Under the pieces are notes generated by a model. The model saw only the letters and a program-made list of their open reading frames with translations, ran no database searches and was not told the origin of the DNA. A stretch of 64,000 nt of DNA from Tubulanus polymorphus (lineage: Eukaryota; Animalia; Nemertea). Positions 1,807 to 26,982 of this stretch are shown here, piece after piece (within the stretch, counting starts at the first letter, position 1; the number at the start of each line of letters is the position of its first letter). Where the stretch lies: assembly GCF_964204645.1 (NCBI RefSeq), contig NC_134027.1, forward strand, positions 4,930,485 to 4,994,484, read 5' to 3'. The translations under genes and the position numbers were made by a program.

Positions 1807-1893
1807 CGCCCGAAAGGTGGAATTGAACCACTCTGACGCTAGTCAGCTACAGGTTTGAAGCCTGCACCCCAGACCACTGAGGATCATCCGGGC
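1807..1893 (-). tRNA. tRNA-Sec: tRNA-Sec (selenocysteine tRNA, anticodon TCA)
   Basis: Reverse complement reads GCCCGGATGATCCTCAGTGGTCTGGGGTGCAGGCTTCAAACCTGTAGCTGACTAGCGTCAGAGTGGTTCAATTCCACCTTTCGGGCG (87 nt). It has a TCA anticodon and long variable arm, and is nearly identical to the vertebrate tRNA-Sec as I recall it, apart from a compensatory pair swap in the variable stem. Confidence 0.97.
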
Positions 1894-1917
1894 ACTCTAC
1901 CACTCGCGTCACCACCG

Positions 1918-1958
1918 TTAAATAGGTGTTGTTTTATGTACTCTTTACAAACACGGTA
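1918..1958 (-). promoter_or_regulatory. Upstream Pol III promoter of tRNA-Sec: TATA and PSE
   Basis: On the minus strand, TATTTAA lies at -31..-25 (1918-1924) and TACCGTGTTTGTAAAG at -65..-50 (1943-1958), resembling the U6 PSE TACCGTAACTTGAAAG. This is the known arrangement for tRNA-Sec genes. Confidence 0.75.
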
Positions 1959-2601
1959 TATACCCGGTAACCCAATTTATTTAGATGACATGACAGCTGT
2001 GAAAGAATGCAACATAGTTTGCAAAATAAACATCACGATATTTTCGTATTTAATATGGATTGTCTTTGAAATGGCGCTCTTCCCAATGTGTTGTTTAAAA
2101 CGGTTATAGCGCCCATCATCTGCCGGTGCAATATTTCTAATACCCGATAACTAGATGGCGCTAAATGCATTGACTGGTTCAGTCGTAGATATCGGTCGTT
2201 GATCGTCTTTTTACTTACTTTTTCCTAATTCATCTGGAAAGAGAAGGAGCCTCAAATTATGTTTTGTATGTCATGTCAAAGCTACTGGTAGCAATAACCT
2301 GGTGATGAGTGTTTGGATATCTGATCGAAACGTCTTGTTTGATAAATAATATTTCTGAATTTACTTACTGCAATGTTTCAAACGTGTTACTAACCGCCCT
2401 AAAAATGTTTAGATGGCGCGCGCTGTCTTTCAAAATGACCCATCAGTCACATGCGATAGCGCAAAACTGGATCGATATAAGCTATCTCACTAAGTTCCGC
2501 GCACTGTTCTGTTGTATGAAATCATAAATTACATATTCAGCGCGTTGCAGAACTGTACTGTGTAGTTGTGCAACAGCGTTAGAGCTGACTTGAGGCCGGT
2601 G

Positions 2602-2650
2602 ATTGGCTAAAGACTAATCCGCCATGATGACGTCACAGGAAGTATATATA
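2602..2650 (+). promoter_or_regulatory. maf core promoter: inverted CCAAT, CRE, ETS site, TATA
   Basis: ATTGG 2602-2606, perfect CRE TGACGTCA 2628-2635, CAGGAAGT 2636-2643 and TATATATA 2643-2650, about 240 bp upstream of the ATG at 2888. Confidence 0.7.
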
Positions 2651-2887
2651 CGCTGGAAATCGCGCTAGTTTGCGTGCCCCTTTTCTTCCCAGGTGGATGG
2701 TGGTATCTCCCTCAGCCACCGTTTTTTCCACCATTGCCTTTCAATTAGTGAACAACATATTGCAAATTTGAACATTTCTACAATTCGGACAATTTTATTG
2801 GTTATAAGAATTTGAAATCGTTGAATTTGGAGGGATATAAATAACGTACTACTGACGGTCAATCAGCAACTTGAAAACGTGGTCGAA

Positions 2888-4424
2888 ATGGAATTTCAGG
2901 ATTTAGTCAATGACTTGCATTTTGATTTCGACCAGTTAACGAACAATGGATTACCGGAAGTGGACACAATAGAAGTGAAGACGGAAGGCGGGTTCGACGA
3001 TGGATGGATTTCGGCTGACTCCCTGTGTAGTCCCGGATCCTACCTGACACCTTCCCCTGCACCGTCTGGAAACGACCCAATCGACTTGACCTCACAATCG
3101 GCATCAATCTATCCTCACACGTCTACTAGCAACGAACTCGACCTGGCTTGGCTTACCCTGCCCATGAATTATCTAACAACTTCTAACAACGTAATTGATC
3201 TGACCATCGATGACCAAGACCCAGCGATGATGACCCCGGAATCGCCGTCAGCTAGCTCCGGTAAGTGTTGAATTTATCCAAGATAACCATTATGCTTTTC
3301 GAGTTCGTTATTTTGAGAGACAATGTTTGGATTCAATTCATTAAAACGAATTCATTCTAATAAAAGCTTATTGTGTTCCATATGTAATTCATTTATTCAT
3401 GGTAATCGTTATAAATGATTTTTTCTCTTGGCAATCGCTTTATGACCGATAATCATATAAATGCAAACGCTTAAGACTGCCGGCTAATGTTACTTTCAGC
3501 ATATAAGCGTGTTTCACAAAAGTGTCCACGTATTTCCATTCAATGGCAATAGCATAGAAATAAAGTTAGGCTATATAAAATGTATTTCATTCATTGTTAT
3601 ATTGATTCATGTATAGACAATCTAGGAATTTTGTCCTACATAGATAAAACTAGCAAACACCTTGAATAGCATAATATATACATATCAAAACTATAAGAAA
3701 TTAACTGACTTTAGATTGGCGTTCTAGTACATAAAAGAAGAAATAGATTTTCATGATGATCGGATGATTTATTATTCAAATCGTGGTCTAAATAACTGTC
3801 AAAATTCATGAATAATAGATGAATATATAGATAAAACAAAAACTGTGAAATATTTCTAAAGAAAAAATGAATAATTCATAATGCCCTGGAATAAAAATGA
3901 ATGAATCCGTAATGTCTACTTTTATTTATGATATATATGCTAATTCCATGTTGAACAGCCCGCATTTTAACGATATCCAATGTTTTTCCTTATGATATTA
4001 ATCAGATATCTTTTTGATTATTCTTACAGTTTTAGACACAACGAATGACAACGACATGGATTCTGACGAGTGTTACGGTATCACCGATGAGGAGTTGGTC
4101 ACGTTATCTGTACGAGAACTAAACGGGAAGTTGCGTGGTTTAAGCAAAGACAAAGTCCGAAGGCTTAAATACAAACGAAGAACATTGAAGAACCGCGGAT
4201 ACGCGCAGAGTTGCCGAACGAAGAAGAACCGCCAAAAATACGACCTCGAAAACAGGAATACCCAACTGGAAAAGGAAAATTTGATCTTGAGGCGTCATTT
4301 GCAAGTAATTATACGCGAACGCGACCAGTTTAAAAAACAAGTAGAAACTCTTCGGACGCGCAATAATTCAGTTTCAATCAGCCAGCCAAGCTCACCGGAA
4401 TCGTGTGACTTTGATAATTTGTAA
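2888..4424 (+). CDS. maf: Large Maf bZIP transcription factor (MafA/B/c-Maf/traffic jam-like), 2 exons: 2888-3260, 4030-4424; 255 aa
   Basis: Exon 2 encodes the Maf extended homology and basic region [46 protein letters not shown], a leucine zipper and C-terminal SSPES. Exon 1 is acidic and Ser/Pro-rich (transactivation-like). Phase-1 intron gtaagt...ttacag keeps the frame. Confidence 0.93.
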
Positions 4425-7400
4425 CAGGAAAAATCAACTTTACTGTGATAAAATCATTCCAGAACGTACAAGTCGACTCACACGAAGAACAAGACGGGCC
4501 CAAGGTGATGTGATATTTTTTTAAATATATTTTTCGTGCGTTGGTTTTAGCCGAGGGCTTTTAACATATTAAGCCCTCGAGAAACGCATATTAATTGACG
4601 GCTAAATGGTGCTATTTTAGGGAGAAAGTTGATGCATAAAAGTTGCCTAAAATTTTTCTTTTGACACTTGCATACTGATGATATGTATATCATAGATTTT
4701 AGATACCCGAAAAACGGAAATGTATTTGTAATGGCGTAGCCCGTGTTGGGGCCTCGTCAATGAGAATTTAATGCGAAGCGTCAAAAGTGTATCATAGACA
4801 TAAACATTTTTTTCTGTATTATAAATCCAAAAGAGTCGGATCACAACTTGATGTATTATTGATCGTTTTGAGTTTAGTGTTCAGAATTACATATGCTTAT
4901 TGAGATTTTCTGTTGCATTATTTGTTCATAGATTTTTAGAGAAATACAGTTTTACGTGTGTACGCACCATTGGCATTGATTGTGAATGTTTTAATTATGT
5001 TGAATACTTATCAAAGTTTATTGGAATCACTAAATATAGGCAGTAACTCCCCCCCCCCCCCATTCAAATCCATTATATATGTCTTTAATAATCTCTGGCA
5101 GATGCATAATATTATAAACGGTTATTCTGTTACAAAACGTTATGAATTTATGTAGAAATTTATTATCTTATTTTTGGCCAAAAACTGTCACCTCGAATTA
5201 TAAATCATTTAGTATGTTCAGTTATACAATGGATGTGCGCAGAGCTCAGGATTTTATGTTGAATATCTTATCTAAAGGGCAGTGTACCTGGTTCAAAGAT
5301 TGGCAATTCGATTCTATTTGAGTGTCAATTTCACATGTTTTAGGTTTTTCCAGTTTTATACATTCGCCATATCGAACAGCATATGTTCATTTACCATTAT
5401 AACATACACGCGAATTTTGAAGCTTTTCCCGATATAAAGATCGATGTTTTTCATTAATTCTGATCCACAGCCGTTGTATTAACGCGCAACAGCTGTGTTC
5501 TTTCAGTTCGCGTATTATGCATACAGAATATTGTATTTTCATTCATACATTTCTGTATGTATAGTGAATGTTTGATTAATTCATAACCATTTCGGACAGA
5601 CCCGAATGAAAAAAGATGATTATCATTTGTTGAAATCAAACATATTCGTACATTTCATATTCTTTTTTTGTTTTGACAATGACAGTGGTTGAACAGTAAT
5701 TGTTGTTAGCGCAATGAGAACCTAGACCCAGTACATCAATTCAAAAAAATATTTCACTTGTTTCATTAAACATAAAACTTAAACCTACCTGGCAGCGCCT
5801 GAGGCAAACCTTACTAGTACATTTCCAATTTTATTCAATACAAATCGCATCTCATTTCTCTTATTCGCACATCGATTATTGCGAATGTTTGCTGTATTCG
5901 ATTTTGTGTTTGATGGTAAGGCCTTTAGGCAAAAATCTATCCGATGTGTATGGATGTTGTTATTTAGTTTCTTTAGGTTTCAAAGGTCGTTATATCTTCG
6001 TTGTTGTTTTGTTATCATAGATATAAGCATTTAAAAAATCATGAAAAAAGTCTTTGTGATTACCCAGTAAATTTGTGCGTATGTTACTTTGTTTGCTTTT
6101 GTTTGTGCAGATGTTATATCGCCCAAGACGGCTGACTTGTTAGTATTTTTTTCACGGCGCACAAATACATAGATGTTATATAGTACAGAATATATATTTG
6201 CGAAGACTTCATTCCCCGGAGGACATACAATTAAATATATCCATGAAGCAATCAATCAATATGTGCGCATTCAAATATTCATTATCTGTAAGTGATCGGA
6301 AAATGGAATATGGTCAAATACTGTACATTTATAAAAACCTTTATCAGCCTGTGCATTATCTCTAATAATGTCTCATAATTTATTCATATCTCGAAAAGTT
6401 CTAATGTCTATCTAGCTAAGGTCGTGTTTCTCTTATTCATTTTTTTTCATACCAAAGGCAACTGATATAGCATCAACTGAGCGTACATAATACGTTATTA
6501 TAGAGTCAATATTCCGTTCGCTAATTGTCGCGTGTTTTATTCTTACGAAATATAACGAACTGGCTAGACTTTACCAGAACTTATAGAACCTATAGAATAT
6601 TGACGTGTGGCTTCCATTCAATTGTCGATATTACTCTCGTTTATGGTTTTGAAAATCACAAACATCGTCTTTCCCCGGTGAAAGGCCAACAGCAGAGTTT
6701 TACTGATATCGTAAGGAAACACGAAATACTTAAGGAATAAAGTACACGCTTGTTAGTGACCATGGAATTTTGACTTCTTTTTAGTAAAGTGTGAGATGTA
6801 CTGAAATCCTGATATTGTAAAATTCGTATTCTTATTAGTATACATTTCCCGCAGCGCAGGAGTCAGACCGATTGATTATACAAGTGTCAGTTAAAAAATG
6901 AAAACAAATCGGTCATAGGTAATATGTCTGTGAGGCACGTTATCCTGAAAGAAATAATACAAAACTGATGTGTGTTGATAGGGACAAATGGGAGATAATA
7001 TTTGAGAGATTTTTGTTCGGAACACAGGACGGACATGATGACCAGTTAAGCTATATAGATATTTGTAGGTTTGTGCCCGCAGAGCTGCGGGAGAGGGATT
7101 TTATGACCCATACTGGGTTTTTATAGGTCCCGCTTATAAAGATGGCTGTCGAAAAAGCTCTCTTCAAAACCACCCGCCTCTACATTCTCAAGCTAATTCC
7201 ATCGCAAGATATGTCTATTGAGTGAGGTGGCCATCTTTATTTGATTGAGGGATTCTATAACATTAACGACGACGGACTGACTAAACGGATTCACCTAACT
7301 TTGTAAAGTAACTCGGATAACGATTTAAGATGAATACAGAAGAAACGTTGAAATCTAAGAGAAAAAGGACACAAAAATATAAAAAAAACTTCCCTTTCCA

Positions 7401-9443
7401 TATGTGGCACTCGCGCGGCATGTTACTCTCGTAAATCATAGACGTTGTTGCCAATGTTGAGACGCCAATTCTTATGGAACGGGAATTTAAAAAAAAATAG
7501 AAAAAAAGAAAAAAATCAAAAATATTCAAGTCGAGGCGTAGGACCAGGGAAAATAAACCGGTCTTGTCGGGCCTCGGCTCTCGAGTTTGTCAATCTAAAA
7601 TGGATTAAAGATTTGACTGATTCCGCCCAGGGAAATTGACAATGCATTGTTAAATGGACCACGAGTTTAAATCACTTATTTTTTGTAGGCTATTTTTCTG
7701 ACTCTTTTAACAGCACAGTCGAGTGTGTAGCCCATAGTAGCATGTGTCACTTTGTGTAATAATGCTGTTAATTACTAGTAAAATCAAACTTACCCGACGG
7801 GTAATCTTTTCAGTGAGTCGTCGATCATTTTGCAAATGATGGCGCTAAAATAGTAATAAAACTATGAAAATCCTGCTTTTTGTTCGTGGATACATTTTAG
7901 ATGTTTCTTGTATTTCCGTTTTAAATGGTTATTTCTCTCGTGATATGTACTATTTTAATTCAGTTTAATTTAAAGTGACACATTTGTTGAAAGGAAAATA
8001 CTCAATGTTTCGACCCGAACCACTAAAATACCACGTGGATACATTTGAACAAATCATATGCGCTTTGATGAAATAGAAAATTCTGTTTCAGCTTTTTTGC
8101 ATACAGCGAATACAATTTGAGCGGTTTCGGGTCGCCATAACCAGTAAAACCATGTGGCTACACAAGGATATGTGCTTTGTTACTGAAGAAAAGAACAATC
8201 ATACTTCTGAAGTAAAGCATAGTGCACCAGCATTTTGGAAAGTTGTTTCTCTAACGGTTGATACTTATAAGGTAGAAAGAAGCGTCTACTGACTTGATTG
8301 GATTCATTTTAGAAATCTAAATACTGCAGTTCATTTCAATGTATGTAATACGTGAAGACAAATGAATCAACTGGTTTTCACATTTGGCGCTAAAAACCGA
8401 ATAACTCTATGAACATTGACGAACTATCGTTATTTTGGTGTTCCAAAAGTGCATCAGAACAGCAGTCGCTGACTGATCGTGTCCGAGGACTCGCAATGAT
8501 CATTCCGAATGCTAGAGAAATTTCATTTCAGGGTTCACAATAAACCGAGAAGGGTATTTGGTAATTTAGAAAAAATGATCAGGTTCTTATTCAATGCCGC
8601 CTGAAAAGCCATCGGAGTACTTTCATTCTCGGCGGACATTGTAACGAATAGTGAAAAAGTGAAGATATTTAAAAGATAAGAGTTTTATCGTTTTGACTTT
8701 GTACTGTCAGTGAGTAAAATGACATGAACCAATGTTTGTACTGGTATTTATTGTGGCAATGATAACGCACGTTTGTTAAAGGTATAAAATGCTGAACTAT
8801 AAAGCTTTACTTTTTGAAATATATTGAAACTTTTCGTAAATAAATAAAGCAAGAACTAAAAACAGAAAATGACTTTTTGCTTTTATTTTTCATTGTACAT
8901 ACATGTATAACGTGTTATGGCGATCGAACAGCTGACTAGAAAAAATCGCACCAAGCACTTGGATCTGAATGTACTAAACTGTGATAATTCTCACAAAACT
9001 TGAGAACGTTTCGATCGATGTATATGTATATGTATATATATTCATAACATCAAAACCGCACATGTTCTATCCGTATAAAGGTATAGTCATTCGTGCACGG
9101 ATATTGCGAGGCTGTGTGTGAACAGCTGGCTGTAAACCCATGCGACATAGTTGCTCTCCCGCTATCAGTTAATTGAAGCGATATGTTACTTATAGTTTGT
9201 TTGCCCATAACCCCTACAAGGTTATTCGATGCCGAGACCTATCATAATTTTTTGCCTCCGAACCCGAAAAAAACATCTACATAGCACAAATAAATTTTGA
9301 ATTGAATTGACTTGACAAATATGAGAAAGGTAGATGATGAAATCACGTGACTCAAAAGTTTTCTTTGTTTGATTTTATGAGATGCAGAAATTACTGATTT
9401 ATATTGCGGTTAAGCATACACACACCACATACAATATATATAT

Positions 9444-9448
<5 letters not shown>

Positions 9449-9511
<63 letters not shown>
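9449..9511. repeat. (TA)n microsatellite
   Basis: About 30 consecutive TA dinucleotides. Confidence 0.95.
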
Positions 9512-9517
<6 letters not shown>

Positions 9518-11331
9518 ATATGTACCGAGGCGATTTGTAAAACTCGAATTCTCCTGAAAATCGGTTGATTTCGCTTTGATATTTAAGATCACGAACAAAA
9601 TAATGGATCTAAACGTTTAATCGCCGTAGGCAGAATTTCATTGATCGATACATCCTTATATCAGCGCAGCGTGCCGACCGTGGAACATATGTGACTGAAT
9701 ATTCAATTACAATAGCCTGAAAATACTATGGCTGTTGTAGACAGGTGCTCTGCGACTGAATCCGCACTGTCTATTGGACGTCATCCTATTTCAATTTCAT
9801 TTAGAAAATTAATCAAGATCATCGTTTTGAAAATAAAATGCATTACGCCGGTATTGCGGTATATAATCCGGTGTTTAACATATCGGATTAGAATTCATTA
9901 CAAACAAGTAATGTTTTTTGCTGAGCTGTCTTTCGGTTTCATATGTTTGACTCCATCTTGGAAACTCTGTGCAGGATACATTTCCAACAAAAATGAAGCT
10001 TTCATATCAAACAATTTGATTGACCAATAACCAACTAAAACTTGTCGCATTTTTCGATATCCACGTTAGCCTGAAACCATCTTTACCAAGATGCCTGTAG
10101 GCACTAGAAGTTTCTTCGTTCTAGGTTTCAGATATCCAATTAACGAGCACCATTTGTGCATATACGTCATGGTATACGCCATATAAAGTAAAATCTAGCT
10201 ACAAATTCTGCCTTCGGGCATTTTCCGTAACTTCTGCATGCAAATTCTTCTTTGTAATGACAGAAATCGATGCACTACGCTTTTCAAAACGCTAGTTATT
10301 TTACAGTAAGTTACTGTTTAATTTGTAGAATATACCCGATGCCCGAGGCAATGTGCAGTCGACGAAACCGAAGAATCAAACATATATATCTTCTTTTGAA
10401 AAAAATTGGTCCATACTTTATATTCGGATTTGAATGAACAAAAGAAATATTCCAAGCTGTGTCACCTTGTTGCAGCGATTCTCGGGATACCGGAATTGAG
10501 CTCGCCCCGATTTGCCAATTTTCATTGGTCCCACAATCTGACTGGTGTTACTGGTATCTCCGAGTACGATTGCCATAATTGGAGCAAAATTATAGCAAAT
10601 CTATATACTATATATCATATAGAGAAATTGGGTAAAATTGGACAGGTGGGCTGGCACAATTATGCATTACATGTGTATATTGATAAATCTATTGGCAAAC
10701 CCGGGTGTGTAAATATAAATGGATAACGGCAAATTTCATATTTTAGACAGCATAACAAAACAAATACGGTTGAAGTAAATTGTACTGTTTAATGACAGCT
10801 GCGTTTCAGCTTTGCTTCGCTCTACAGGTGATTATCAACCACCGATTGGATAAGATTGCACATCCAGCTGGGTAGTCAGTATACAATAATCGATGATTCA
10901 AATAAACTCGTATATAAATATAACTACCCTACAGTTGTCAGAATGTAAAAATGCCTATCAGAAACTTTATAATGGATACGCAAAATTAAGAACAAAGGAA
11001 TTAGAAGTTGAAAATTCATGATTTTTCCAAAGGAGAGCTATGGCCCTCTTGCGGATGGTTTCAATAACATAAATCCGCTATGTTTATTAGTATCAGATTT
11101 AACCACCATTGGCTTGCGGCAGCACTTTACGGTTTACTTGGTGCAAAACTGTTGCCGTGTTTTTCATCAACCGTAGTTACGATTATCACACTGTCCAATG
11201 AAACAGTACACTGGTTACCATAGCATTGCAACCGATCACTCTTCACAGTTTTGAATCTTAATCCGTGGATCGTGTGAAAAATTTATCGCTAATTTCTTTA
11301 AATCAATCAAGAGAAAATTGAAGTTCAAATC

Positions 11332-14300
11332 ATGACGTCTGAATCTGATTCCGACGAGTCTGCGTTTAGTGAGATCTCGGAAGAATATGGACTTAAGGAT
11401 CCTTTTACATCATTATTCTTTGGTCCAGAAACGCCAGGAACAAGTTCAGCATTAAACAGAGTCTTCCAGGTTGCGCCGTCGCAGTATGGTTTTCACAGAG
11501 CATGTAAAACAAAAGTAACAAATTGTCGACAGGTTCAAATAATAGACGTACGGCAGCTGTTTACAAAAATGGTCAAGTCTGGCGCCCAGTACATCCCTGA
11601 AATAATTTTGAATGAAAAAGAAAGAAGTGAATATGAATTCGTTAATATTGACCATTTCGGAGATAAGGTATATTCACCGTCTTAGTTCAATTTCTACTCG
11701 AATCTGAATTTGTAGGACCTAGGGTAAGGTTCTAAATGGCAAGAGACTGTTGGTATTAGCGTTGGCTATAAATAGATATCTTGTATTACATCTAATACAA
11801 CGAATAATTTACTATTGCTAAAATTTGCTTTAAATTTAAGGATAAGATCACCATGTTACACCTCTTCACTGCTCGTGGAGATGCTTTGATGTTGCTCAAA
11901 TTGATAGATTCAGGGGCAAATGTGAACCATCAGCAAACGGTAGGCATCGGCAAACAGTTTCTTCATCCTCTTTTGGTTAACACGTATCTAAATGTGCATA
12001 GCTTATACTTCCATTTCATTGGACTTCTACTACTCTTGTTTCAGAATGGAAATACAGCTCTGATGGAAGCTACTGCTAATGGACAATATGAATGCATGAA
12101 ACGACTGATAGCCGGAGGAGCTAAAGTCAATATACAAAACAAGGTAGAATAGATATCCGAAAAACCATTAATTGGCCTTCTTTTTAGGCCTTCGTATGAT
12201 AGAAAAAAACTAATTATTTTCAAACGTTCTCAACGACTTTGATTGATGATAGATGGAGTTGATTTATTACGCATCTGACTATTATTTCTATTAATAATTT
12301 GAAAATCCTAATATTTTGAATCGCGTAAGTTCTGTATCAGAATTTTTCTGAAGCTGAAACGGTTAAGTTTGAATCGTTATCCTCATTGAAATTTGAGGAC
12401 TCCACGTTTTATTTCTTTAATATCTAGACTGGCCACACGGCCATAATGATCGCTGCTAATAACGGAGACTTCAAGGCTATAAAAATATTAACGGCGCAGA
12501 GGGTTTTGAACATAAACTTACAAACAAAGGCGAGTATGAATTCATATATTGCATTTGATATTTCGAAGTTCGACGTAATGAATGCTTTATCATCAAGGGA
12601 GGAGGTTACATTAAACTGCATCATTTAAATTTCTAGATGGGTAACACCGCTTTGGTTTTTGCTGCTGTTGAACAGCACGAGGACGTTATACGTTTTTTGT
12701 TAATGAAATGTGGAGCCGATATCTTTGCAAGACGAAACGTGAGTTACTGTAATCATGCAGACCACTGAATAATGGTGAAAATTGTAAAAAAGCGTTTTCA
12801 AGCGTTTTGCGCGATTGAATTGTTTTTACTCACACGAACGTTTTTTGTTTTGTATTGGTTAGCTGCCTTTGACAGCCTACTGTATAAGCTCTTTCCAAGA
12901 AGATGACAAGTGTTGTAGAATTCTTGCTGATCGACTCATGAAGCTTAATCTTGTTGGCGCTTTCATAAAGGTAGATTTGACACGTCAGCATCCAGTTGCA
13001 TAATCAAGGCTTAGACTAGTTTAAGACCACCTAGTTCTATGTCCAATCTAACAACTTAAGATCAATCTTAAGATTTAAGACAATTTTTAGCTTAAGTCAT
13101 ATCTGTGCAAATGGACTCTCAAGATCCAAACTACATAAGTTTGATATATTGTTAGTTGTTGTATTTTGGTGATTTTAGAATCGTCTGCGTATCCTTGGAC
13201 GAAACAAAAACGATGGAGTGTTGCTGCTTATGACGACGTTTTCGTTGTGTCCGTTTCTGGTGCTGGTCCAGAAGATACCCGAAAAACTCCGCATGAAATC
13301 TTACGAGCGCCTGATGATGCACCGTTCCCATGATAACCACAGCAAACATTGCCGTACGATGCATCGCCTGTTACCATGGTCACTGATAGTTATGGGTCAT
13401 CCGATTCGACTGATGAAACTAAACAAGACTCAAATAACAACGATATTTCAAGATTTTCACGAAACTGGAGCTAGTGACATTTTTCTTCAGTGCGCCACGA
13501 CCTACGGTAACGATGACGTCACTTTTTACCATTTGCTGGTAATCATCGGCTTTTTCTGCTCTGTTGAAGAAGGCCGGAAGTGGCTTGAAGTGCACGCTCG
13601 TCTGTTTTCGCGGTGTGCAAAGATCCTTGATAAAAAAGGAAAGTTCATTGGTGACCAAAAGAACAGTCTTACAGATCAAGCACCGAGTGATTGTGTGCTT
13701 GCGTTGACATCAGAAGATTATCTTGAAGTCCGTGTACAAAACGCCGATGTTATCTTGAACTTGGTTTTACATCGAGTCGCTGACATGAACATGAGAGAAC
13801 TCATTGCCGCCGAGAGCGCAGAAAAGGAAAGAGCAGAGAAAAGAAGGCAAATGAGAAGGAAGAAGAGACAAGCAGGAAAATGCGAGCAATTGAAGGGCAA
13901 AAATACTGTAGTGGCACCAGCGATAAACGACGCAGATGATGAAAGCAGTGATGAATCGGACCAGGATTTGAGGAGAAATGTACCACTATATTCTGCCACG
14001 AAGATGATGGTATCGACATCACCCATGCCAAATATGGCTTTGACAACCATTAAACGAGAACCAAGAAATAACAAACAGCGTTTGAAATGCGCAATGAAAG
14101 AACATGAAAAAGTGACACCACAATTACAGTACGACACACGGAAGTCCATGAAATATCAAGAGGAACCAAAATTTAGAAATCCACCACAATCAGATCACAA
14201 CGACGCTAAACGACGGCAAACAAACAAGCCTTTAAGACCGAAGTCGAAATCCCAACCATCGACTCCTGTAAAGTCCACGAAGCCTCCATCACCACTTACG

Positions 14301-17300
14301 ACAACGTATGGTACACCGCCAAGGACACAAACCGTTCGGAAGGAGCCGAGAAAAGAGCCGATACCGTTTACTGAATTTATGACAATGGCTTTCAAAAATC
14401 TTAAAATAGAAGATTGCGGTAAGTTAACCGGCGCCTGGAAAGAGAAAGTTACAAAAGGAAAAGATACAACGGCAAAAGATGAACAAGTACAGCGTGGTAG
14501 CTTAGATAAAGAATTGATGAAAAATCGCCCGGAGACACAAGACCCTGCTCGACTCGGTTCTAAATGTCGACGTAAACACTTCAATCCTGCGACTGAAGAT
14601 AAGACAACAAAAGCTGCAGAACCACCAGCTCTACTTACACCAACACCAAAGACTACCATCAAAAAAGAAATTGTTACTCCGAAAGTCGTCCGAAAACCGG
14701 ATATAAAAATAGCTCTAGCACCTTCCAAAAAAGTTCGAATGGAGCCTTACGTGATGCCTGCGCATATAATAAGGAAGGCCGAAAAAAAGGTTGTCGATAG
14801 ATGCGCGCATAAAGAGAAAGTAACGGTTAATGTTATTGAAGAGAATAAACTGGATGAAGAATTTGATACTATGCGTATGACTGCTGCTATCGATAACCTG
14901 TTCGATTTTCCGTCTGACGATGACGACAAAGACGCAAAAGACGATGACATCGATCAGTTTCCCGACCTGGAAGAGTGGGACGAGTTCATTCCTCCTAAAG
15001 AACAATCACGACAAGAGACTAGAGAATCATCGAGACATGAAAATAAGAGTGCCACAGTGCTTAAGAAAACGAGTAGCGCATACTTATCTACTGTAGAATA
15101 TCAGAGCGCTAGCGAGGATGCCGACGGTCGGGGTTCACTTTCGTCTTCACTCTCCAGTGAAAATAACGATTACGTGAGCTGTTCATCATCATCCGATCAA
15201 AACGATACAAAAAGCAATGACGATAACAAAGAAGTAGTTGACACTAATCCCGAACAAGAATCTAGCAGCATCACTGATCCGCATTCACAAGACACAGATG
15301 GGATGTCCAAAGTGGAAATGGACAAGTCCAAAGAAGTTACTGTGGAGGTTATAAGATCAGAAGAGAAAAGAGAACAAGAGGATATAAGTCCAAAATCATC
15401 GAGCGCATCAATTGATGTCAAATGCATATCACCCGCAGTCCACGGTGTTTCTGAAATAACGTCACTCGAAGAAACGACACAAATAAAACAACTCATTCCT
15501 GAGCAAAAACCATCTGCTCCGTGTCAGCCAGTTACAGCGTTCTTTCCCAGTATGCCAAAAGGGAACTTATTCGACGACTTGCAGCACATATTTCACGGGT
15601 CTACAAAAACGTTCGTGGCGAATGAAGACGGTGCCGTCGATGTGACCGATGGGTATCCACGTGATAACGTTGACCATGCTGGCGATCACGAAATCTACCG
15701 GAACCCCTTCCAGGAGTTATGGCATGCACCAGCACCCCCACAACCTGTGCGTATCAACTGGACGTCATGTAGCAATCGATGGAATAAACTTTTTGAGAAA
15801 TTGGTAAAGGCGGATACCGTGTGTCGAACAAAAGTCTACCAGTATTACATGTACTGTGACAATCCGGAGATGGTAATCGCGCAAGGGTAAGTGCTTGGTG
15901 GTAGATGAATAATGAGTTATTCCGCTGCGGTTCTTTGTCACTGATAAAGGATATTACATCGCAGTTATACTGGAAAAGTCTTTTTTTTTAACCTCCAGTG
16001 CATTTGGTAATATCATCAGTGTAGGGCTACACGAAGACGGTCGCGAAGTCAGCGTCAAACGAATGCTCAAACTCAACACCGCCACAATAAGGGACAGAGC
16101 TATCGATTTAAAACTTCGCAATTTAGAGACCCCTTATTTACTCGCATATCTGGTATACCTTTAAAGCGAACTTAAAAATATCCTGCCATGTTCACTCTTT
16201 AATTCCACCTTTAATGCATTTAGGATTACGTGGAAGATCAGCATTTCGGATATTTGATAACGGATTTGACTGAGATGTCGCTCGACGAATACATACCAAA
16301 CGAATTGATTTATCGCCCAACTACGTGGCAAAGAAAAGCTCGAAATCTGTGCCTACAAGTGTTACTAGGACTGAGAGTTCTACACAATGAACATATCCTA
16401 CATGGAAATCTGAAGGTAAGCTCGTTGGAGTGCGTACAGTTGGGAAATGATTCCTGGCGAATATTATGGCACAAATAACACCACAATCTCAAATTACCGA
16501 CACTAATATTCGTTTCTATAGCCAAGCAACGTGCTAATAACGAAAGAAGGAAACTTGAAATTAGCGGATTATGGAATATTCGAAGGAGATAGCGTTACGT
16601 CTGCACAAACTCCGGTCAATAGAACAGGACTGTGCTGGAAGCCTACCGAATGTTTACTGCCCGGAGAAAGTCGAATGCCTTACACCGAAGCGTCCGATAT
16701 ACAAGTATATTTTTTTTTCTTTTCGGCATCGTGCTTTTTCCCATACAGTTCGTTAATGTATAAGTTTGATTAAGCACTGTTTCATTATTTTGAGATAGGT
16801 TTCCGGTATGTTGTTTCATTATATGATTACTGGAGGAAGCCATCCTTTCGGCAATGATCCCGCCATGAGTGAGCTTCTCGTCAGACAATGCCGCCCGAAA
16901 CTTCACCCGAACCTCGACGACATAACCATGCACATCATGGGCTGTATGTTACATCCAGAACCGAATAAGAGGCGATCGGTACAAGTCTGTACTGAGTATG
17001 TATCATTTGAAAAGGTTAAATCCGCACTTCATGTTCACCATTCAAAATCTTTGAAATTTCCATTACAGTCACCCGTTTTTCTGGTCGCAGCAAGATCAAT
17101 TTAACTATATCCTGGCAGTTGGAGCACAGCCGGAAGTGAGATCTGCACTATTTTGCGAGGTGACCCGTCTTATGAACAGCGCAATCTCGTGGACCGGCTA
17201 CATTAACTGGGTCTGTAACAATAATACTTGCTTGTGTGAAATGTCTACGTAACACGCCTAGTTTGCATCGTAATAATCACGTGTTTACTATTTGCAAATG

Positions 17301-17746
17301 TAGACTTGTAGAATCGATCCTGGACTGTTAGAATATGTTTCACGGGGACAAAAACGCATCATCGTGTACCAAGACTACTTCTGCGATATAATCAGCTTCT
17401 TGTATGACTTGGACAAAGAATACAAAGTTATGTAAGTAATGAAGATGTGAATGGAGAATGTCGAGTATATGATCGTCGATAATACGACAATTGCATTGAT
17501 CTGTGCATACCACACTGAGTTAATAGGGTTCGCGGGGAAAGGATGCTTAAATCTGAATTGTCTAAAAACGATTGAAAATTCAGGCCTCAAGACTTGAAGA
17601 GAACGATCCCACAACCGAGCGAATACTACCGAGTTATGTTCCCGCGTATATTCCTACCCACTTTCGACATCATATCAAAGAGCACATGGAGTAAACGAAA
17701 GAACTTGTTAGCATTTTACGAAATGTCGACACCGACGATGATTTAG
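11332..17746 (+). CDS. Ankyrin-repeat / IRE1-RNase L-type pseudokinase / KEN-domain protein, ~1570 aa. Exons 11332-11667, 11841-11939, 12045-12143, 12428-12529, 12637-12738, 12863-12970, 13179-15886, 15999-16152, 16224-16415, 16522-16704, 16799-16995, 17069-17210, 17304-17431, 17584-17746
   Basis: All 13 junctions are phase-consistent (total 4713 nt). Ankyrin exons of 99-108 nt (GNTALMEA, GHTAIMIAA, GNTALVFAA). Kinase motifs IAQGAFG..DGREVSVKRM, LHGNLKPSNVL, LADYG, YMITGGSHPFG. KEN start HPFFWS and KEN tail PSEYYRVMFPRIFL. AATAAA near 18045. Confidence 0.88.
12357..12390 (+). repeat. Dispersed repeat fragment (same family as 52926-53035)
   Basis: aaacggttaagtttgaat(c/t)gtt(a/g)tcctcattgaa also occurs at 52946-52979 (32/34 identical). 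Confidence 0.75.
12991..13115. mobile_element. Intronic MITE-like palindromic element
   Basis: Ends tccagttgcata ... tgtgcaaatgga are imperfect inverted repeats, with repeated ttaaga units inside. Confidence 0.5.
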
Positions 17747-18539
17747 ATTTATTTGACTGGATTTTGCTTCCGACGACCTTTAAATCAATGGGTCTCAATT
17801 GTGAAATGTTACCCTTGAATGCCAATACTCTTAAGATATTAAACCTGGAAGAATAACTTCTCACACAGGGGGCACAAAAATGACTTCGTATAACTTGGGA
17901 CAGAACTAGATAGAAAAATATATGAAATATTCGATTTATACTATATCTTATAATTATATACTGGACAAGTGTTATTTTTCCACCGAGCATGTACATGCAT
18001 GTGATTGTTTTATATACATTTGTTATCGTGTACCTTTTAACGCAGAATAAATTTTGTTAAAATATGTGTTTGTTTAGTGTTTAGTTTCTCGCACCTTTCT
18101 GATCTTACTGATCTTTGAAATTAGGCGCCCTATTGTCATTGGCTTAATCATTTCCCCAGTTAAGTCGTGTTGACGTAATTTTTGATAAAGGCTTTGAACA
18201 AGGCGTTGACTTACTTAGGTAGAACAATGGAGATGATTGGTACGAATTATTATTGATACCTGGTAGGTGACGAATAACCGCGGAATTCTGCGCGACATTT
18301 CCATTCTCGGCTTCCGTACGGAACGGTTAATTGCTTTACTACAATCTCTCGGTGACAATACGTGCTTTATAACCTGCGGGCTTCGCATGTCTGTAGTTGA
18401 ATAATTCAAATTTACGCCCATTCGCGGTGGTTCATACCTGTGCAAAAACCTGTGCCGTGCAGACCGAGTTTGAACTCTATGTCGAATTTCGGCTATATCT
18501 TATGTGATATTCTGTTGCTGAAATTGGAGCTACAGAAAA

Positions 18540-21500
18540 ATGGAAGTAACTCAAGACAACACCGAATCTCAGGTAAACATTAAAGTCCTAAGTTAGAATC
18601 GATTTACATTTATACAGTACAATGTCTAATTTCGTTGTACACTGGGTCTTGTTGAACGAATGATTTTAAGCTTAAAACGGTTAAATTCGAAAAACCAAAA
18701 AATGTGTGCGTTTAACTTGTTTTGATACTGCGCCCTGAACAAAGAATAATGAATTTTTATTAAAACACCATGATCCGGTTCCATAGTTGTGGGTTAGAGT
18801 TAACTCTGAGTTAAGATTAGTTCATTTTCGATGTTTTAACTCGGGGTCAAATCTTAACTCACGACTGTGGAACCGGGCCCATAATATTTTCTACGGGGAA
18901 AATGGTCACTATCATTAGTTTCAAGGTCTGGCTAAAATTAAAAGTTGAAAGTTGACCTGGCCGGCCGATATCTACCGTGTAGATTATTTTCTTTAATATA
19001 ATGATCAAGCTAACCTTAACAGATCCGGCGGCTGATTACAAATTTTATTGTGATTTACAAAATGACCTGGTCGATTAGGAGAAACCAAGGTATCATTTTT
19101 TATGGTATGGTAGGGGGATTGGATTGATAATTGTTCATCTGTGATCTATTCTTATCATTCGGCGAAAATAGAAGGGAAACTCGTCCGATATTGTGTAAAA
19201 GTAAAACGTCTATTCAAAGTACAACATAATCAAAGTGGTCATATGTTGGTTAACTAATCCCTGAGATCAATATGACTGACAAACATTACATACATGAGAA
19301 TCTAATTGACATCTCTTGTCTTTCGATTAACTGGACAAACAATTTGTCAGCACATAATTTATAAGCTCACAAGTAAAGAAGTTCCATAAACAATTTAAAG
19401 ATGATTTGATTTTGCTTTGAAGTAGGATTCCGCTTATCTGTAAATATCCTTTATTTCCATATTTTGAACACATTAGATAACGCCTTATAACGTCATATAT
19501 AGTTTATATATGACTACTGAAATAATGGAATTCCCTTCAGATATATATTGGCTGTCTTTTTAGTCGAAAAGAAAAGGTGGAAATCCCTCTGATAATAACA
19601 GGTTGTTCATACCTATATTTATCATATAGTTATATATTACTGTGTATAAATATATATGATTATTGACCACGACAGGACTCGCTGTATCTCGTAAACAATG
19701 AGATTGACGATGATGTTTATACAATAGGCGCTGTAAGTACGGACAATCTGTTGTAACGTCTGACTATATATGTGAACGCGCAATGAATTCCTGACACAAT
19801 CGAGTCCAAAGAGCTGCAGCAGATGCTGTGTTCGTTTCAATTTGAATAATCGAACCGTGACAGTCTGTAATATTGAATTTGAAATCACCTGTCGCTGTTT
19901 GGACTTCACTGTAAAAAGCAATTGATAGACGCATGAATTCATGGATTGTAGTATTTTTTTGCGGTTATGTTAGATTCATTTCCTAGAGATAGACGTATAG
20001 ATCTTTGGAAATTGTTGGATTATGTATACACGTCACACCAAGCCCACGTTGCTATCGTCTGATAACTCGGCACGCAAATTTGTTGATTTATCTACTCATG
20101 TCACTCCAACAAAAAATCACCAAGATACATTTTATTTCAAACTGGAACAACATATTTTTCCAAAAAGAGAAGCAAAAACAAAATTTATCAATTCTAAAAA
20201 GTTTCTTTACCTTTCGATTCTGTTCGTAGCATCATTTCGCTTTTAGCGTTGTTTCAATCGTTGTTTGAAAGATTTACTACTTATTTTTTCAATTTCTTCT
20301 TTCCTCATAACCTTTTTTCAATTTTGTTTCCTCTTTTTCAAGAAAAAAGATCCTCCGGCACAGAAATCAAAACTAAGAAACGCCCTGAGCAAAGTTCTAA
20401 AGGTTCGACCGAACAATGATAAAAAGGAACAATTTAGCGATCTAGAAGGCAATGACAATTTTGCTTTCGGAAGCAAATCGACAATCACCACGAATCTAGC
20501 CCCGGGTGTTTATTCGTACTCGGTGGATACCCTTAATGTACCTTCCAGCACTGCTACCTCAACTGTAAGTACTCACCGTTCGTGGTTTAGTTTCGCGGTT
20601 TTAACTATATGCGATTTAGATCGATTTAGTAATTCCCGCTGTGAAGACGATAGCGATATTTCAACATAAAATTGTGTAAATTCGACCGACCATTCAATTA
20701 ATTGATATATGTAATGTGCTTCTTCGATTTCCGATCCAAAAATCAAGCCCAAACGAGGGGGGGGCGTTTCGTTCCCGGCGGGTGGCGTAGGTTTGTAAAG
20801 GACACCATAAATCAATGATTAGTAATAAAGTGAAATTGTTCATGTTTCTGAATTTCAGAGAAACCTTTTTGACGATGATAATTCAGGAGATGAGAACGTA
20901 GAAAGAGGGAATTGGAGCGGTAAACTGGATTTTATTCTGTCATGTTTAGGGTTTGCTGTTGGCCTGGGGAACGTATGGCGTTTCCCGTATATGTGCTATC
21001 GTAACGGAGGCGGTGCATTTTTCATACCTTACTTAATAATGATGTCACTAGTCGGTATACCACTGTTTTTTATGGAACTCTCTCTTGGACAGTTTACGAG
21101 TAGTGGGCCGCTAACTTGCTGGGGATTCTGTCCCATTTTCAAAGGTATGGCTCTCTTCAAATATTCTCCATCGCAAACTCCGCATTTCTTTTTGAATTCA
21201 CAATACGTATCATTTCATTTTTAAATAGGCATTGGAATTGCGATGGTAATAGTATCCGGATTAGTGTGTATTTATTACAACATGATCATCGCATACGCTT
21301 TGTTCTATCTATTCGCATCATTTACTGGAGATTTACCTTGGAAACATTGTGACCGATCTTGGAACACTAAAGGTACGATTCCTTATATGCCACATTTTTC
21401 TCATTCGTTACGTTTCACTGGCGCTATAGTTCAATGTCAGAGAACCGATTCACGTGAAGACGCCATAAAAGTTTTTGTCCACAAAGCGCCTGCACTGTGC

Positions 21501-24500
21501 GTGACTCACATACGAAGAAAAAAATTGCCAAATATGTATACATATATATGAACAAATATATATATGTACATACATGTATATGAACAATTTTACAGAAATA
21601 AAATGAACATATTATATTCGATGTTAACGATATTTCTGCCTGGGACGGCTGCATTTCGATTTCTATTCGCGCAATATATGCAAACTATTAGATAAACTGA
21701 AATTGTTATGGACTTGGCAATAAATGAAATGCCTTGAAAGCCTCCACCTCTGCGACCGAGCCCCATGTTGTTTAGGTGCCTTGCACTTGGAAACTTGTTT
21801 TCGATCGGGTCTATGATTATATCGACAGAAGAATGCTATGAACTTTCATTTTCTTTGCCCTAAGAATGAATTACCATATAATGACGGACAACGATATCCT
21901 ATTAAGGAACGGAAATGGCAATATGAGAACTCGAGGCTATGCTCACAGTTAATCTCGTGTGCAAACTGTGAAATACTTTCTGGTCAACTCGCGACGTTCC
22001 CATAGCGATTATTTACCAACTTCAGAAAGAAAGTGCTTGTTATACCGCCTTAACCAATTGTACACAATTCAATATCTGTTTGTGTTATAAAAACGCAAGT
22101 CAGATAAATACAAATGAAGATACATGTTAGATTTCTTTTTTATTTATACTTCTGAGCTAATAAACATTTTATGCGACTTTATTCATCCTGTTTTAGTAAA
22201 TAAAATGTCGTGTTTCAGATTGTTCTCTCAACCTTCCATTGGTTAAGTGCAATGAATCGGCACAGGTAAAATTGTACAACGGCACGTGCTACATCGGTCG
22301 TCAACTTGTTGGTATATACGATGACGAATTATATAAAAACATCACGAAAAAACGCCGAATACCGCCGAGTGAGGAGTACTACAAGTAAGTTTCAATTGGC
22401 CTACTCTACATGCTCTCTTATGAGATGAAAAATGAATTATGTTTCTTTAGTGCTATACTTAGAATCTGATAGTTCCAAGTTTAAAAAAAATACAATTTTT
22501 CACTTTAAATCTTACAATTTTTTAGCCATCGGATGTTGCACATCACCAACAGTATTAACGAAACAACAGAGCCGTATTGGGAGCTTGTTTTGTGTTTACT
22601 TCTCGCCTGGGTAATCGTGTTCTTCTGTTTGATCAAGGGCATCAAGTCGTCAGGAAAGGTAAGTTTGGTCCGCAAATTCGCTGCTGCCTGTCTATTCGCT
22701 TCAATAAGTAATCCTCTTAACAAAAGACAAAGCTGATTAGCATAAATTTTATCCCTACCACATATTTGTAGATATTGATTACTTGAAAGATATCAAGAAA
22801 TGTTTTGCTTTTTCATTTTAGGTTGTGTATTTTACAGCTTTGTTTCCGTATGTCGTGTTGGTGATATTGTTTTTCCGCGGAGTCACTTTGCCGAATGCTA
22901 GCGAAGGGATATTCTTCTACATTGTACCGAAATGGAAAAAACTCCTCGATGCCAGTGTATGTAGATAATCTGTTACGTATTTAAGTTTACCACTCGGCAG
23001 ATTCATTAATGAATATCAGAACACTTTTATAGGTATGGAATGATGCTGCCGTCCAAATATTTTTCTCGTTGTCCAACTGCTGGGGTGGACTCATTACTTT
23101 GGCCAGTTACAACAAATTCAACAATAACGCCCTCAGGTAAGCCTATAAGTTTGTGTTTTAATTTGTATGTATCAGGGTTGTTTTTTTTCATCCAGTATAT
23201 AAATCATTCTAAACTATCTCTTAAACTAAATGGTCTTATGATTTGTATTATTTCAGGGATACGCTCATAGTAACTCTCGGTAATTGTGGAACTAGCATTT
23301 TTGCCGGTTTCGTCATATTTTCGTTCCTCGGGTACATGGCTGGTATCATGAACACTACAGTTGAGAAGGTGGCCAGTAGTGGTAAGTTTCTTACATTTTT
23401 GAAATATACATCCAGATATTCTTTCAAATGTTTTGATTCTAAGTTTACTACCCAATGCAGGAGCGGGCTTAGCTTTTATCGTCTACCCGGCTGCTGTGAC
23501 CTATATGCCTGTGTCACCTCTTTGGGCTATCCTCTTCTTTATAATGCTGTTATTGTTAGGTCTGGACAGTCAGGTGAGTACATCGAATAACTGCTTGAAC
23601 GTTGCAAGACATATAGAAATAGAAAATTTGTAAAATTTATTATTCTAATTAACTTTCAGTTCGCTATGATGGAAACGGTGGTCACCGCGATTATAGACAA
23701 ATACCCAGAGAAGCTCCGAAGCAAGAAACTGCTAACTATCCTTGTCTTCAGTCTTATATTCTTTTTGCTCGGCCTTACTCTTTGCACCGGCGTAAGTCTG
23801 CAAACAATTTCTACTTCATAGTAAAATTCATTTCGAAAAAGAGATCAATGAAATGCTACAAGTGATAATATATGATATATTTTTCAGTCCGGGCCGTATT
23901 GGTTACAACTGATGGACTCATACGCGGGTGGCTGGACGCTCTTGGTGATTGGACTATGCGAATGTATTGGAATTGGATGGATATACGGTCAGTAGACAAT
24001 TTTACATCACGCTTGAGAATAGACTCTATTCTCAAGCGGTAGCGGTTGATACGATGCAGTAAACTAATTCATGTATCGATATCATTTCAGGCTGGGATAG
24101 ATATTTCAGTGATATTGGAATCATGATGGGAAGAAGGCCCACAATATGGTGGAGGATGACCTGGCAATTCATCACCCCTATCCTCATTGTGGTACGTCGA
24201 CTCAGATCTCTGTCCATTCGTTCATTGCATGGCCATGAAACATAAGAATATATGATTTTCGAATCTTTCTGCAGGCTGTTCTCTTATTTGCGTGGATTGA
24301 TTATAGCCCTGCTCGCTACGGAGAACAAGCTTATCCAGTATGGGCTGACACAATCGGTTGGTTTATGACGATATCTGCCGTTATTTGGATCCCGATATTA
24401 ATCATTTATCAGATCGTTGTACAGAAAGGATCATTCGTCGAGGTAGGTGTTGACCCTATGACATCGGTTTATCCATTATACGTGTATTCTGAAAGTAACG

Positions 24501-25111
24501 ACGGATCGTGTTCAATGTTATAGAGGTTGAAAGCAGCAGTACGAGTGTCCGATGACTGGGGGCCAGCTCTTCCAAAACACCGAGTTCTTTGTTTGGGGTA
24601 CGCCCCCGATTTCAAAGTCTACCCGAATGCTGATGTCGAAGATCAAAATATAAAAGAGCCAAAGTTAAACAACGTAAGTAAAAACCATACAGCTGAACAT
24701 CAATCGATAATTCACCCAAAATGTATATATTTCTTGTTTGTACAAATAAATGCATTTTAATTATAGAGTTACCATACGTTTGACTAACGTACGTAATTTG
24801 ATATTGATATTCATGCTATTTTGTATAAGCTACACTGGATTTTATTTGCATTAGTCGGGTCTGCTTAAGGATTTTCTTAAATACTTTAGGTATACCCGGT
24901 ACAGCATTTTTATTTTTAGTAATATATGTATATTCATTATACTGATTATTATATGGAGCAGTGTCACAAAACGAATGTTGAGGTTTTTATATGAATATCC
25001 GTTTTTTCTTCACAGGGAACTAGTATGCAGGCTACACCAGACAGCGGCCGAGGAACTATCAAGACGACTCAGTCCCGTAGTACTGACGGCTCGCAGGAAT
25101 CAGTTCTTTAA
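18540..25111 (+). CDS. slc6a5: SLC6 Na+/Cl--dependent glycine transporter, GlyT2-like, ~735 aa, 16 exons (18540-18572, 20343-20564, 20859-21144, 21229-21372, 22219-22384, 22526-22658, 22822-22956, 23033-23136, 23257-23381, 23461-23573, 23660-23791, 23888-23987, 24091-24191, 24275-24442, 24524-24673, 25016-25111)
   Basis: [65 protein letters not shown]6 [22 protein letters not shown] (GlyT-type Trp and GlyT2-type Ser), LGLDSQF, WGPA, and C-terminal PDZ-type ESVL. The first two and last exons are less certain, and strict SLC6A5 orthology needs a tree. Confidence 0.9.
18775..18880. mobile_element. MITE-like palindrome in SLC6 intron 1
   Basis: ccggttccatagttgtgggttaga ... tcttaactcacgactgtggaaccgg are imperfect terminal inverted repeats. 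Confidence 0.65.
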
Positions 25112-26982
25112 TATTGTCTACTTGAGTACCACAGGACGTAATTCTCCACATTTTCCCGATAAACTTTCAGATTTTGGGTTCTTCCATAGGTATTTACAGA
25201 ATTCGGTTAAAAGCTTCTGTCGGTCAATTGATTTTAGAATCTCCATGACATTTTTATGATGTCCTTTTCTTTGCAATAGTTTGTTTTAATCTTTACATTC
25301 AAACGCCGTCCACCATTTTTATTGAATGTGTAATGAAACCGTCCTTTTAAGAAATTCCGAATTTTTACGTCACTCAATGTTTCAACCTGATTTTCGTTGA
25401 TTATTTTACTACTATGATGAATCTTGTAATAATTGTAATTTGCAAATTAATTTTAGATGTAACGTAAGCTCTATCTGATAATCGTGCGATCGTTTTTATA
25501 TTTGATCGCTTTTTAAATATTTGAATCCAATTTTAAAGAGATAGGGACGAATACAACTATCGAATATGCGTAAGAGCAAACGGTCTGGCGTGTGTAGTCA
25601 TTATTTGTTTATTCATACTTCTCATCGTTTATATACATGTACTGAATGACGTCCGTATTTAGCTGTTCTTAATACTTACCTCTATCGGATTTTTTTTTAG
25701 ATAAGAATATAGCAATGCGTAATAAAAAGAGTGAAATGAGTAATGAATAATGCATGGGTTTCTTTTCTTCATTTTTCTGGATTTGTTAGATTGTGCCTCT
25801 GATCTCTACCGGCGATTCTTCAATGCTAACTCTGTTCGGCCGATATCCAAACGAAAGTAAGGAAGATATACGCAACATTTAACAGTGATAAACATTTATT
25901 ATCAATTTCAGAAGGTTAGATTTAACAGCAATATGTGCCTGGTATGACATAGTTTTCATGGGCCTGGACGGAATTTTTATCGAGTTAAATAAATATTATG
26001 TACAATATATACGGACGATTTCAAAGAAAGTAAAAATATAACGATATGAGGTTCGAAATATCTGGACGAAAGCAGGCGTTCATTACGAATCAATCACAAC
26101 AAGTAACTGGATTTAAGTCACCATTAATGAGCTTTACTCAAGCAATACATAAAGCTGAAGCACAGAGGTATAGAATTAGCTGCTGTATATAAAATTAATA
26201 TGTTATATTCATACGATGAAAAAAGTCAGTTTGAGAGAAACTTCACGTGAAAGATATACAGAAGAAATGTCAACAAATCGTTCATCATGTCGTCAACTTA
26301 ATCACTGTAACAGTAACAGTAACGGCAAACTTAATGTAATTGAATCGCGTTTAACTCAACAGCCACAGCTGATTGACCGATCTAAAAAAACGGTTTTCAA
26401 TCAGACATCATTGTCGTATGCAAAAACATATCACTGCTTTTGATGTAGTAATTTCGATTGAAAATATATTACAATCACAGGCTACTGCATCGACGGCATA
26501 TGTTTTTCGTATCACACACACACACATATTTTAATTTAGAAAGAAAACAGTTATAAACTCTGTAAAACTTAAATTTTCGGTAAAATACGATATCCTGCGA
26601 TGATTTAAATCAAAAACAAATATATAGCTCTAATTTAACAAACACTAAGGCTACTGATGGGCTAGTACATGGGCTACTCAATTGAGTGTAACGAATATGG
26701 TAAGTAAACCTGTCTATAATGTTCTCAAGATGATATAAATTCAGCAGTTACATTTACATATTGCCTGAAACCCTATTGATTCTGCAGTAGATGCCGTACA
26801 AAGTGACGGATGCTGCTTTCATAAATAACACGGCTAATGATGCCGCGGGAACATTAGCTGATTCCGTATTAGATCAAGGATTAATTGTGGAATGAGAACA
26901 AACAAATCTGTTCAGTTTTACAGTTTCGTTTATAAATGATTTCGATATTCTATTTACAGAAATGTCGTTTTAGCTAGTCGTT

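Follow-up and report, generated by a model that had tools for sequence, protein, structure and literature searches.

A predicted 14-exon gene of the nemertean Tubulanus polymorphus, at 11332-17746 (+) of the 64,000-nucleotide (nt) stretch of DNA analysed here (the window; positions 4,930,485 to 4,994,484 of contig NC_134027.1, assembly GCF_964204645.1), would encode one soluble kinase-KEN protein of 1570 amino acids (aa) that carries ankyrin repeats near its N-terminus and in which both active sites appear dead. We read this protein, with a probability of roughly 45%, as a regulator that binds nucleotide and acts on active kinase-KEN nucleases. The ankyrin-kinase-KEN layout is already known in outline and is common in anthozoans; what is new is its doubly dead, long-linker form.

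Catalytic residues of the kinase and KEN domains

Spliced by coordinates, the 14 exons give 4713 nt whose sole stop is terminal, across 12 GT-AG introns and one GC-AG intron of 71-284 nt, all compatible in phase; GC content is near 37%. The splicing is predicted from sequence, its exon joins not having been seen in RNA: three public runs contain the stretch, none recorded as RNA, and their contigs span the introns with no splice joints. A first-pass annotation of this DNA had proposed a 14-exon gene with ankyrin, kinase and KEN regions in that order, with which the open 1570-aa frame, the ankyrin repeats of exons 2-5 and a kinase of the family type agree. Fifteen differences are listed in two related DNA runs; seven are exonic (three silent, four missense, no stops) and the sole indel listed is intronic, a pattern in keeping with a maintained gene.

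An IRE1/RNase L-type pseudokinase is encoded by exons 8-11 (15999-16152, 16224-16415, 16522-16704 and 16799-16995, +). When Pfam was scanned exon by exon at E<=1, Pkinase matched on exons 9-10, and a profile of 123 related kinase-KEN modules matched aa 1141-1454 at 168 bits, including the HP-x-FW that ends an IRE1-type kinase; a broader profile took in aa 1141-1555 as one stretch (180 bits). In the family alignment, the protein keeps the Gly-loop G-x-F-G, the ATP-site Lys K1205 (codon at 16057-16059, +), H1296, K1300, N1303, D1316, E1343 and D1359. HRD is replaced by HGN (16401-16409, +), with G1297 and N1298 in the R and D columns, the alphaC Glu column holds A1219, and DFG reads DYG (16567-16575, +; Y1317). 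The HRD Asp is present in 121 and the HRD Arg in all of the 123 family modules, and both are lost here, which upholds the annotated loss of the kinase active site. Given the kept Lys, Asn and DFG Asp, the pseudokinase may still bind ATP-Mg. Ahead of it stands a pre-kinase element common to the anthozoan family (15735..15827, +; W1143, S1147), whose real score was reached by 0/500 and 3/500 in-place shuffles under two profiles; with an unanchored pre-kinase profile the window scored 0.0 bits and 151 of 2000 shuffles scored as high, and support for the element thus comes from the anchored test only. In a fold model of a coral member, the counterpart of this element lines up with RNase L from residue 333 onwards.

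The C-terminal domain (138 aa, aa 1433-1570) contains zero histidines, whatever the alignment, and therefore has no HEPN RNase motif. In the family alignment, the catalytic R, N and H of KEN are matched by Y1508, D1509 and E1513, so that YDLDKE (17403-17420, +) stands where the anthozoan family has R-N-x3-H, and the same register was reached by eye from human RNase L and human IRE1. According to PMC3710099, KEN catalysis requires both R and H of the Rx4-6H motif, and the RNase L mutant H672A is described as inactive in Chu et al. 2023 (PMC10400998). The proposal that the nuclease is dead as well thus stands on the replaced residues and the lack of histidine.

Whether this domain is a KEN at all was weighed in several ways. 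No in-place shuffle (0/500) of KEN helix 1 (aa 1433-1452) reached the real score under either profile. The KEN-only score was 7.4 bits versus a best of 5.0 among 2000 shuffles with the anthozoan profile, and 13.8 bits versus a top of 13.5 among 3000 shuffles when 15 diverse rows were drawn from 107 of 127; hhalign gave 33.2 (probability 72%) versus a best of 16.9 in 100 shuffles, in an alignment collinear across profile positions 2-133 of 141. We regard aa 1433-1570 as a putative degenerate KEN domain, its identity firm for helix 1 and weak beyond, because of its position, length and collinear anchors more than its score. The annotated KEN of exons 12-14 is accordingly retained for helix 1 and at the level of the hhalign match, while its body is weak and no single exon matches Pfam Ribonuc_2-5A. 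The same exon-by-exon check, which the annotation had proposed with hidden Markov models for Ank, Pkinase and Ribonuc_2-5A, did recover the first two (Ank on exons 2-5) and returned nothing for exons 1, 6, 7, 8, 12, 13 and 14; exon 11 had one weak match to a DUF family.

Anthozoan relatives, RNase L and IRE1

Relatives were sought by a metagenome scan for DNA encoding HP[FY]FW-x11-VGN, a pattern that combines the exon 12 sequence with an RNase L motif. Of the 22 loci obtained, six encode kinase-KEN proteins and the other 16 encode none; the VG motif is common to these loci by construction, because the scan pattern contained VGN. Viral scans gave no matches, and four loci from prokaryote genomes were set aside as having no match to the kinase-KEN module. 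In one coral locus (L012, 6440-10291, -), an intronless frame of 1284 aa encodes ankyrins, an intact kinase and a KEN domain. When its kinase-KEN part served as the query against 7992 candidates 706-2247 aa long, 845 proteins matched at E<=1e-10. The best 120 of these 845 matches are all annotated with Ank, Pkinase and PF06479, and each of the 16 among them with a named organism is anthozoan; genera in the family are Acropora, Stylophora, Porites, Montipora, Desmophyllum, Exaiptasia, Actinia, Actinostola and Dendronephthya. The rarity of the layout implied by the annotation thus finds no support, since the anthozoan family has it too and Chu et al. mention ankyrin-bearing homologs. Additional DED or TPR domains, or kinase modules in tandem, occur in some family members. 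Three further scan loci encode divergent kinase-KEN proteins with a VGN junction and are probably non-animal: L007 (90-1187, +) with a C-terminal SAM domain, L015 (1530-2774, -) with altered HRD and KEN His, and L017 (1016-2734, +) with an intact kinase and no obvious sensor.

Among the 123 family modules, 121 keep the kinase triad, 120 the KEN R and H, and 118 both; one of the remaining five is due to an artefact of extraction, none loses both, and no maintained doubly dead member was found among them. The window protein resembles the family in having the same three domains in the same order, the same pre-kinase element and KEN helix 1 (profile 168-186 bits), and differs in having lost both active sites, in being only 21-27% identical over the kinase-KEN module, in encoding one ankyrin repeat per phase-0 exon where L012 is intronless, and in the region between ankyrins and kinase, which does not match that of the family and spans about 890 aa versus at most 703 aa in the 53 of 120 relatives measured. 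In a quick-method tree of 51 rows, built with no IRE1 or RNase L rows and leaving out near-identical rows and one KEN-less tandem kinase row, it sits on a long branch outside every supported anthozoan clade, with a terminal branch of 3.33 changes per column versus a median of 0.24. An AlphaFold2 model of the L012 module (70 sequences; predicted local distance difference test, pLDDT, 92) matched IRE1 with Z 35.5 (root-mean-square deviation 3.5, 363 aligned) and RNase L with Z 30.7 (4.5, 355 aligned), and IRE1 is the best PDB match of the coral member by sequence and by fold. RNase L aligns from model residue 1-6 and IRE1 from 22-31, although IRE1 crystal constructs may start later.

With vertebrate RNase L (human PDB 4OAU/4OAV, pig 4O1O/4O1P), the window protein shares the order of ankyrin, pseudokinase and KEN in one predicted chain, the HPFFW-x11-VG junction and the lack of a signal peptide; on the last point the annotation was right, as no N-terminal hydrophobic stretch was found (maximum 19-residue Kyte-Doolittle, KD, value 0.14 in the first 30 windows of that size). 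It has, however, 4-5 ankyrin repeats where those of RNase L run up to R9, is twice as long, with its long spacer between ankyrins and kinase, and has the catalytic R, N and H of KEN (R-N-x3-H, H672) replaced. PMC5927464 places the 2',5'-oligoadenylate (2-5A) contacts of RNase L in ankyrin repeats 2, 4 and 9 (W60, K89, F126, E131, R155, R309). The ankyrin region of the window protein (aa 113-282) has no Trp and hence no W60 equivalent, and the few repeats, the lack of Trp and the long distance to the kinase together make RNase L-style 2-5A sensing unlikely. On these features the predicted protein is not RNase L proper, and the idea of a sensor in the 2-5A sense finds no support in its ankyrin anatomy. 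Human RNASEL has a phase-0 intron before Asp523, as indicated by the variant c.1567-11_1574del in PMC11277002; a c.1905 match in PMC8139251 proved to be DPYD, not RNASEL, and was discarded, and the supplements of PMC10451000 held no RNASEL splice coordinates. The likeness to IRE1 (ERN1, yeast Ire1p) lies in the kinase-KEN unit, the GSHPFG and HPFFW motifs and the full-length activation segment. Unlike IRE1, which has an active kinase (HRD, DFG) and KEN and, ahead of the kinase, a signal peptide, a luminal sensor and a transmembrane helix, the window protein reads HGN and DYG and has no KEN His, has ankyrins at its N-terminus with neither signal peptide nor luminal domain, and has VG in place of VSD after HPFFW.

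Previous reports describe related architectures. Chu et al. 2023 (PMC10400998) restrict RNase L to the jawed vertebrates, shortly before which its assembly is placed, and note that several non-RNase L homologs encode ankyrins, likely as independent gains, and Anantharaman et al. 2013 describe KEN fused to kinases along with ankyrins, the motif being kept in 95%. In Hu et al. 2018 (PMC6307210), RNase L is scored absent in corals, Nematostella, oyster, Lingula and acorn worm; a cyclic GMP-AMP (cGAMP)-induced RNase L is listed for Nematostella in Margolis et al. 2021 (PMC8713801); and the title of a paper on a dominant-negative RNase L mutant stands in the reference list of PMC4730318. No description of a doubly dead ankyrin-kinase-KEN protein was found in the literature searched, which did not cover subscription papers. 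The window protein most likely acquired its ankyrins independently of the vertebrate RNase L ankyrins, as these are encoded as one repeat per phase-0 exon versus the intronless L012, and because the intervening regions do not match and PMC10400998 makes the statement above on ankyrin gains.

Exons, linker and neighbouring genes

Exon 1 (11332..11667, +; aa 1-112) encodes an acidic N-terminus with neither a family match nor a signal peptide. Exons 2-5 (11841-11939, 12045-12143, 12428-12529 and 12637-12738, +) encode a single ankyrin repeat each, all in phase 0, with Pfam Ank E values of 0.018, 7e-9, 6e-4 and 3e-7, two of the four above the gathering score; the GC donor belongs to intron 4, between exons 4 and 5. 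Exon 6 (12863..12970, +; aa 247-282), which has no Pfam match, is a possible degenerate fifth repeat or cap, and the ankyrin alignment with the anthozoan family extends to aa 266. Exon 7 (13179..15886, +; 2708 nt, aa 283-1185) holds an orphan region, a predicted helix with a basic cluster, the linker, the pre-kinase element and the start of the kinase. Intron 10 (16705..16798, +) is in phase 0, two codons past the alphaF Asp (D1359). Exon 12 (17069..17210, +) contains the kinase end HPFFW and KEN helix 1 with VGA, exon 13 (17304..17431, +) the KEN core, and exon 14 (17584..17746, +) the final KEN helices and the stop codon; a candidate poly(A) signal, AATAAA, at 18046..18051 (+) is the sole one from the stop to position 19000.

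The orphan region, aa 283-536, has no homolog among 701 candidates nor among 1.84 billion representatives, and exon 11 likewise had none (1 candidate). Atlas look-ups gave scores all under 0.9, loosely ARM-repeat-like. Single-sequence folding of aa 283-536 was poor (pLDDT 41.7) apart from one charged helix at aa 493-522 (13809..13898, +), the only confident predicted helix of the region, with a Lys/Arg cluster that resembles a putative nuclear localisation signal. This one helix is what survives of the "helical region" of the annotation, the rest having neither a homolog nor a confident fold. The hydrophobic maximum of the protein, aa 294-312 (13212..13268, +; KD 1.98), is its only strongly hydrophobic 19-mer, sits about 870 aa before the kinase and may be a buried helix or a membrane segment. 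The linker proper (aa 521-1130; 13893..15722, +) is low in hydrophobicity and has a net charge of +30 in its first half and -40 in its second.

Two observations concern the start of exon 7. A second frame over 13145-13474 (+) is closed by stops and over its first 150 nt equals the open frame in coding likeness by codon usage, so a past frameshift in this lineage is possible there; an internal acceptor at 13491 was not adopted, as it has no well-scoring matching donor. A high-copy repeat within intron 6 (13045-13080; summed contig depth about 1278 versus 35-42 in the flanks) is probably a small transposon remnant.

Elsewhere in the window, a Maf-family bZIP gene (2825-4424, +; PF03131) lies upstream, and an inverted repeat (18775-18876; 22-nt arms 86% complementary, 58 nt between) resembling a miniature inverted-repeat transposable element lies downstream, followed by an SLC6 sodium:neurotransmitter symporter gene (20247-25259, +; PF00209 on two open reading frames, ORFs). 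Many exon-sized ORFs at 27735-50393 (-), which contain a recurring beta-rich unit and stretches resembling cadherins, seem to form one very large gene, and the five of them scanned gave no Pfam match. A 594-codon acidic open frame at 55112-56896 (-), which also has no Pfam match, starts with the myristoylation-like MGNLSS.

Proposed function and competing explanations

We hypothesize that the window protein regulates active kinase-KEN nucleases, since the structural kinase motifs are kept while the HRD Asp and Arg are lost, and since active relatives of the same layout are abundant in other invertebrates. Mechanistically, the pseudokinase would still bind ATP-Mg, and the unit made up of the kinase and KEN helix 1 would keep its fold and dimerise with an active paralog. 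Because dimers are the working form of KEN RNases, cleavage by this mixed pair would be reduced or absent. Localisation, or some input that is not 2-5A, would come from the ankyrins and the charged linker of 600 aa. For RNase L, PMC8104961 describes activation as homodimerisation and a dimer contact N601-E671.

Several points weigh against this proposal. At the N601 and E671 positions the window protein holds A1446 and K1512, and the RNase-RNase interface is therefore changed. Shuffles of aa 1453-1570 reach the real score in 313/500 cases with the anthozoan profile and 36/500 with the broader one, and those of exons 13-14 in 45/500 and 2/500; the KEN body is thus barely above chance, a drift that fits a domain no longer pairing with a conserved partner. 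A second family member was not found within the 64-kb window, and aa 294-312 is by predicted hydropathy hydrophobic enough for a membrane helix.

The explanation that ranks close behind, possible but the more doubtful of the two, is that the protein has left the RNase pathway as a lineage-specific scaffold whose pseudokinase-KEN is merely a stable binding module, with the ankyrins, basic helix and charge-segregated linker organising a nuclear or granule complex, e.g., in the germ line. The long terminal branch, the eroded KEN body with its altered dimer-contact residues, the unusually long ankyrin-kinase spacing and the homolog-free aa 283-536 would all suit a scaffold, whereas retention of the pre-kinase element and KEN helix 1, as seen in the in-place shuffles, speaks against it.

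We consider it unlikely that the protein is a true invertebrate sister of vertebrate RNase L, with a layout inherited from the common ancestor and RNase activity lost later. In ungapped blocks against human RNase L, identities are 7/23 in KRIIVYQDYFCDIISFLYDLDKE, 5/10 in PSEYYRVMFP and 3/6 in WTCRID, and the Tyr and Phe ahead of the catalytic helix have a spacing of 10 in the window protein and RNase L versus 11 in L012 and in yeast and human IRE1. These blocks, however, were chosen by eye after the fact and are unscored, and YKVMPQDLKRTI, the stretch past the catalytic helix, resembles human IRE1, not RNase L, by eye. Searched singly against PDB sequences, exons 12, 13 and 14 and the pre-kinase piece match no RNase L chain at E<=10, other single-exon searches gave generic kinases or nothing relevant, and a pre-kinase profile of three rows also missed RNase L. 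Intron 10 may lie at the site of the RNASEL intron before Asp523, going by a tentative alignment of the alphaF region of RNase L. The reported limitation of the RNase L clade to jawed vertebrates argues against such a sister. More doubtful again is the fuller version, in which a surviving RNase L sister with the RNase L-type one-residue KEN deletion and intron site shows that the layout predates jawed vertebrates, and the doubly dead paralog is a brake on a coral-expanded antiviral nuclease system.

It is improbable that the C-terminal 120 residues have lost the KEN fold or that the gene is a decaying copy. The low KEN-only scores and the lack of a single-exon Ribonuc_2-5A match are what such loss would give, but the hhalign score and collinearity stand well clear of shuffles, the domain has the right position and length, and the frame is fully open. 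Least probable of all is a pair of genes, an ankyrin gene (exons 1-6) and a pseudokinase-KEN gene starting inside exon 7: the exon 6-7 join is predicted with no linking transcript, the high-copy repeat lies in intron 6, and the first 312 nt of exon 7 have only modest support from codon usage, 0.13 bits per codon versus 0.05 in another frame, but the exon 6 donor (9.9) and exon 7 acceptor (11.3) are among the best of the gene with matching phases, the gap is just 208 nt, no AATAAA occurs from exon 6 to 14844, and within exon 7 no acceptor scores above the threshold used.

If the protein does restrain active paralogs, as we propose, KEN nucleases would have a pseudoenzyme as a regulator. The anthozoan family, mostly unnamed and with both sites intact, is a candidate invertebrate antiviral nuclease that may merit its own study, and together with this invertebrate ankyrin-pseudokinase-KEN gene it makes the question of the origin of RNase L testable.

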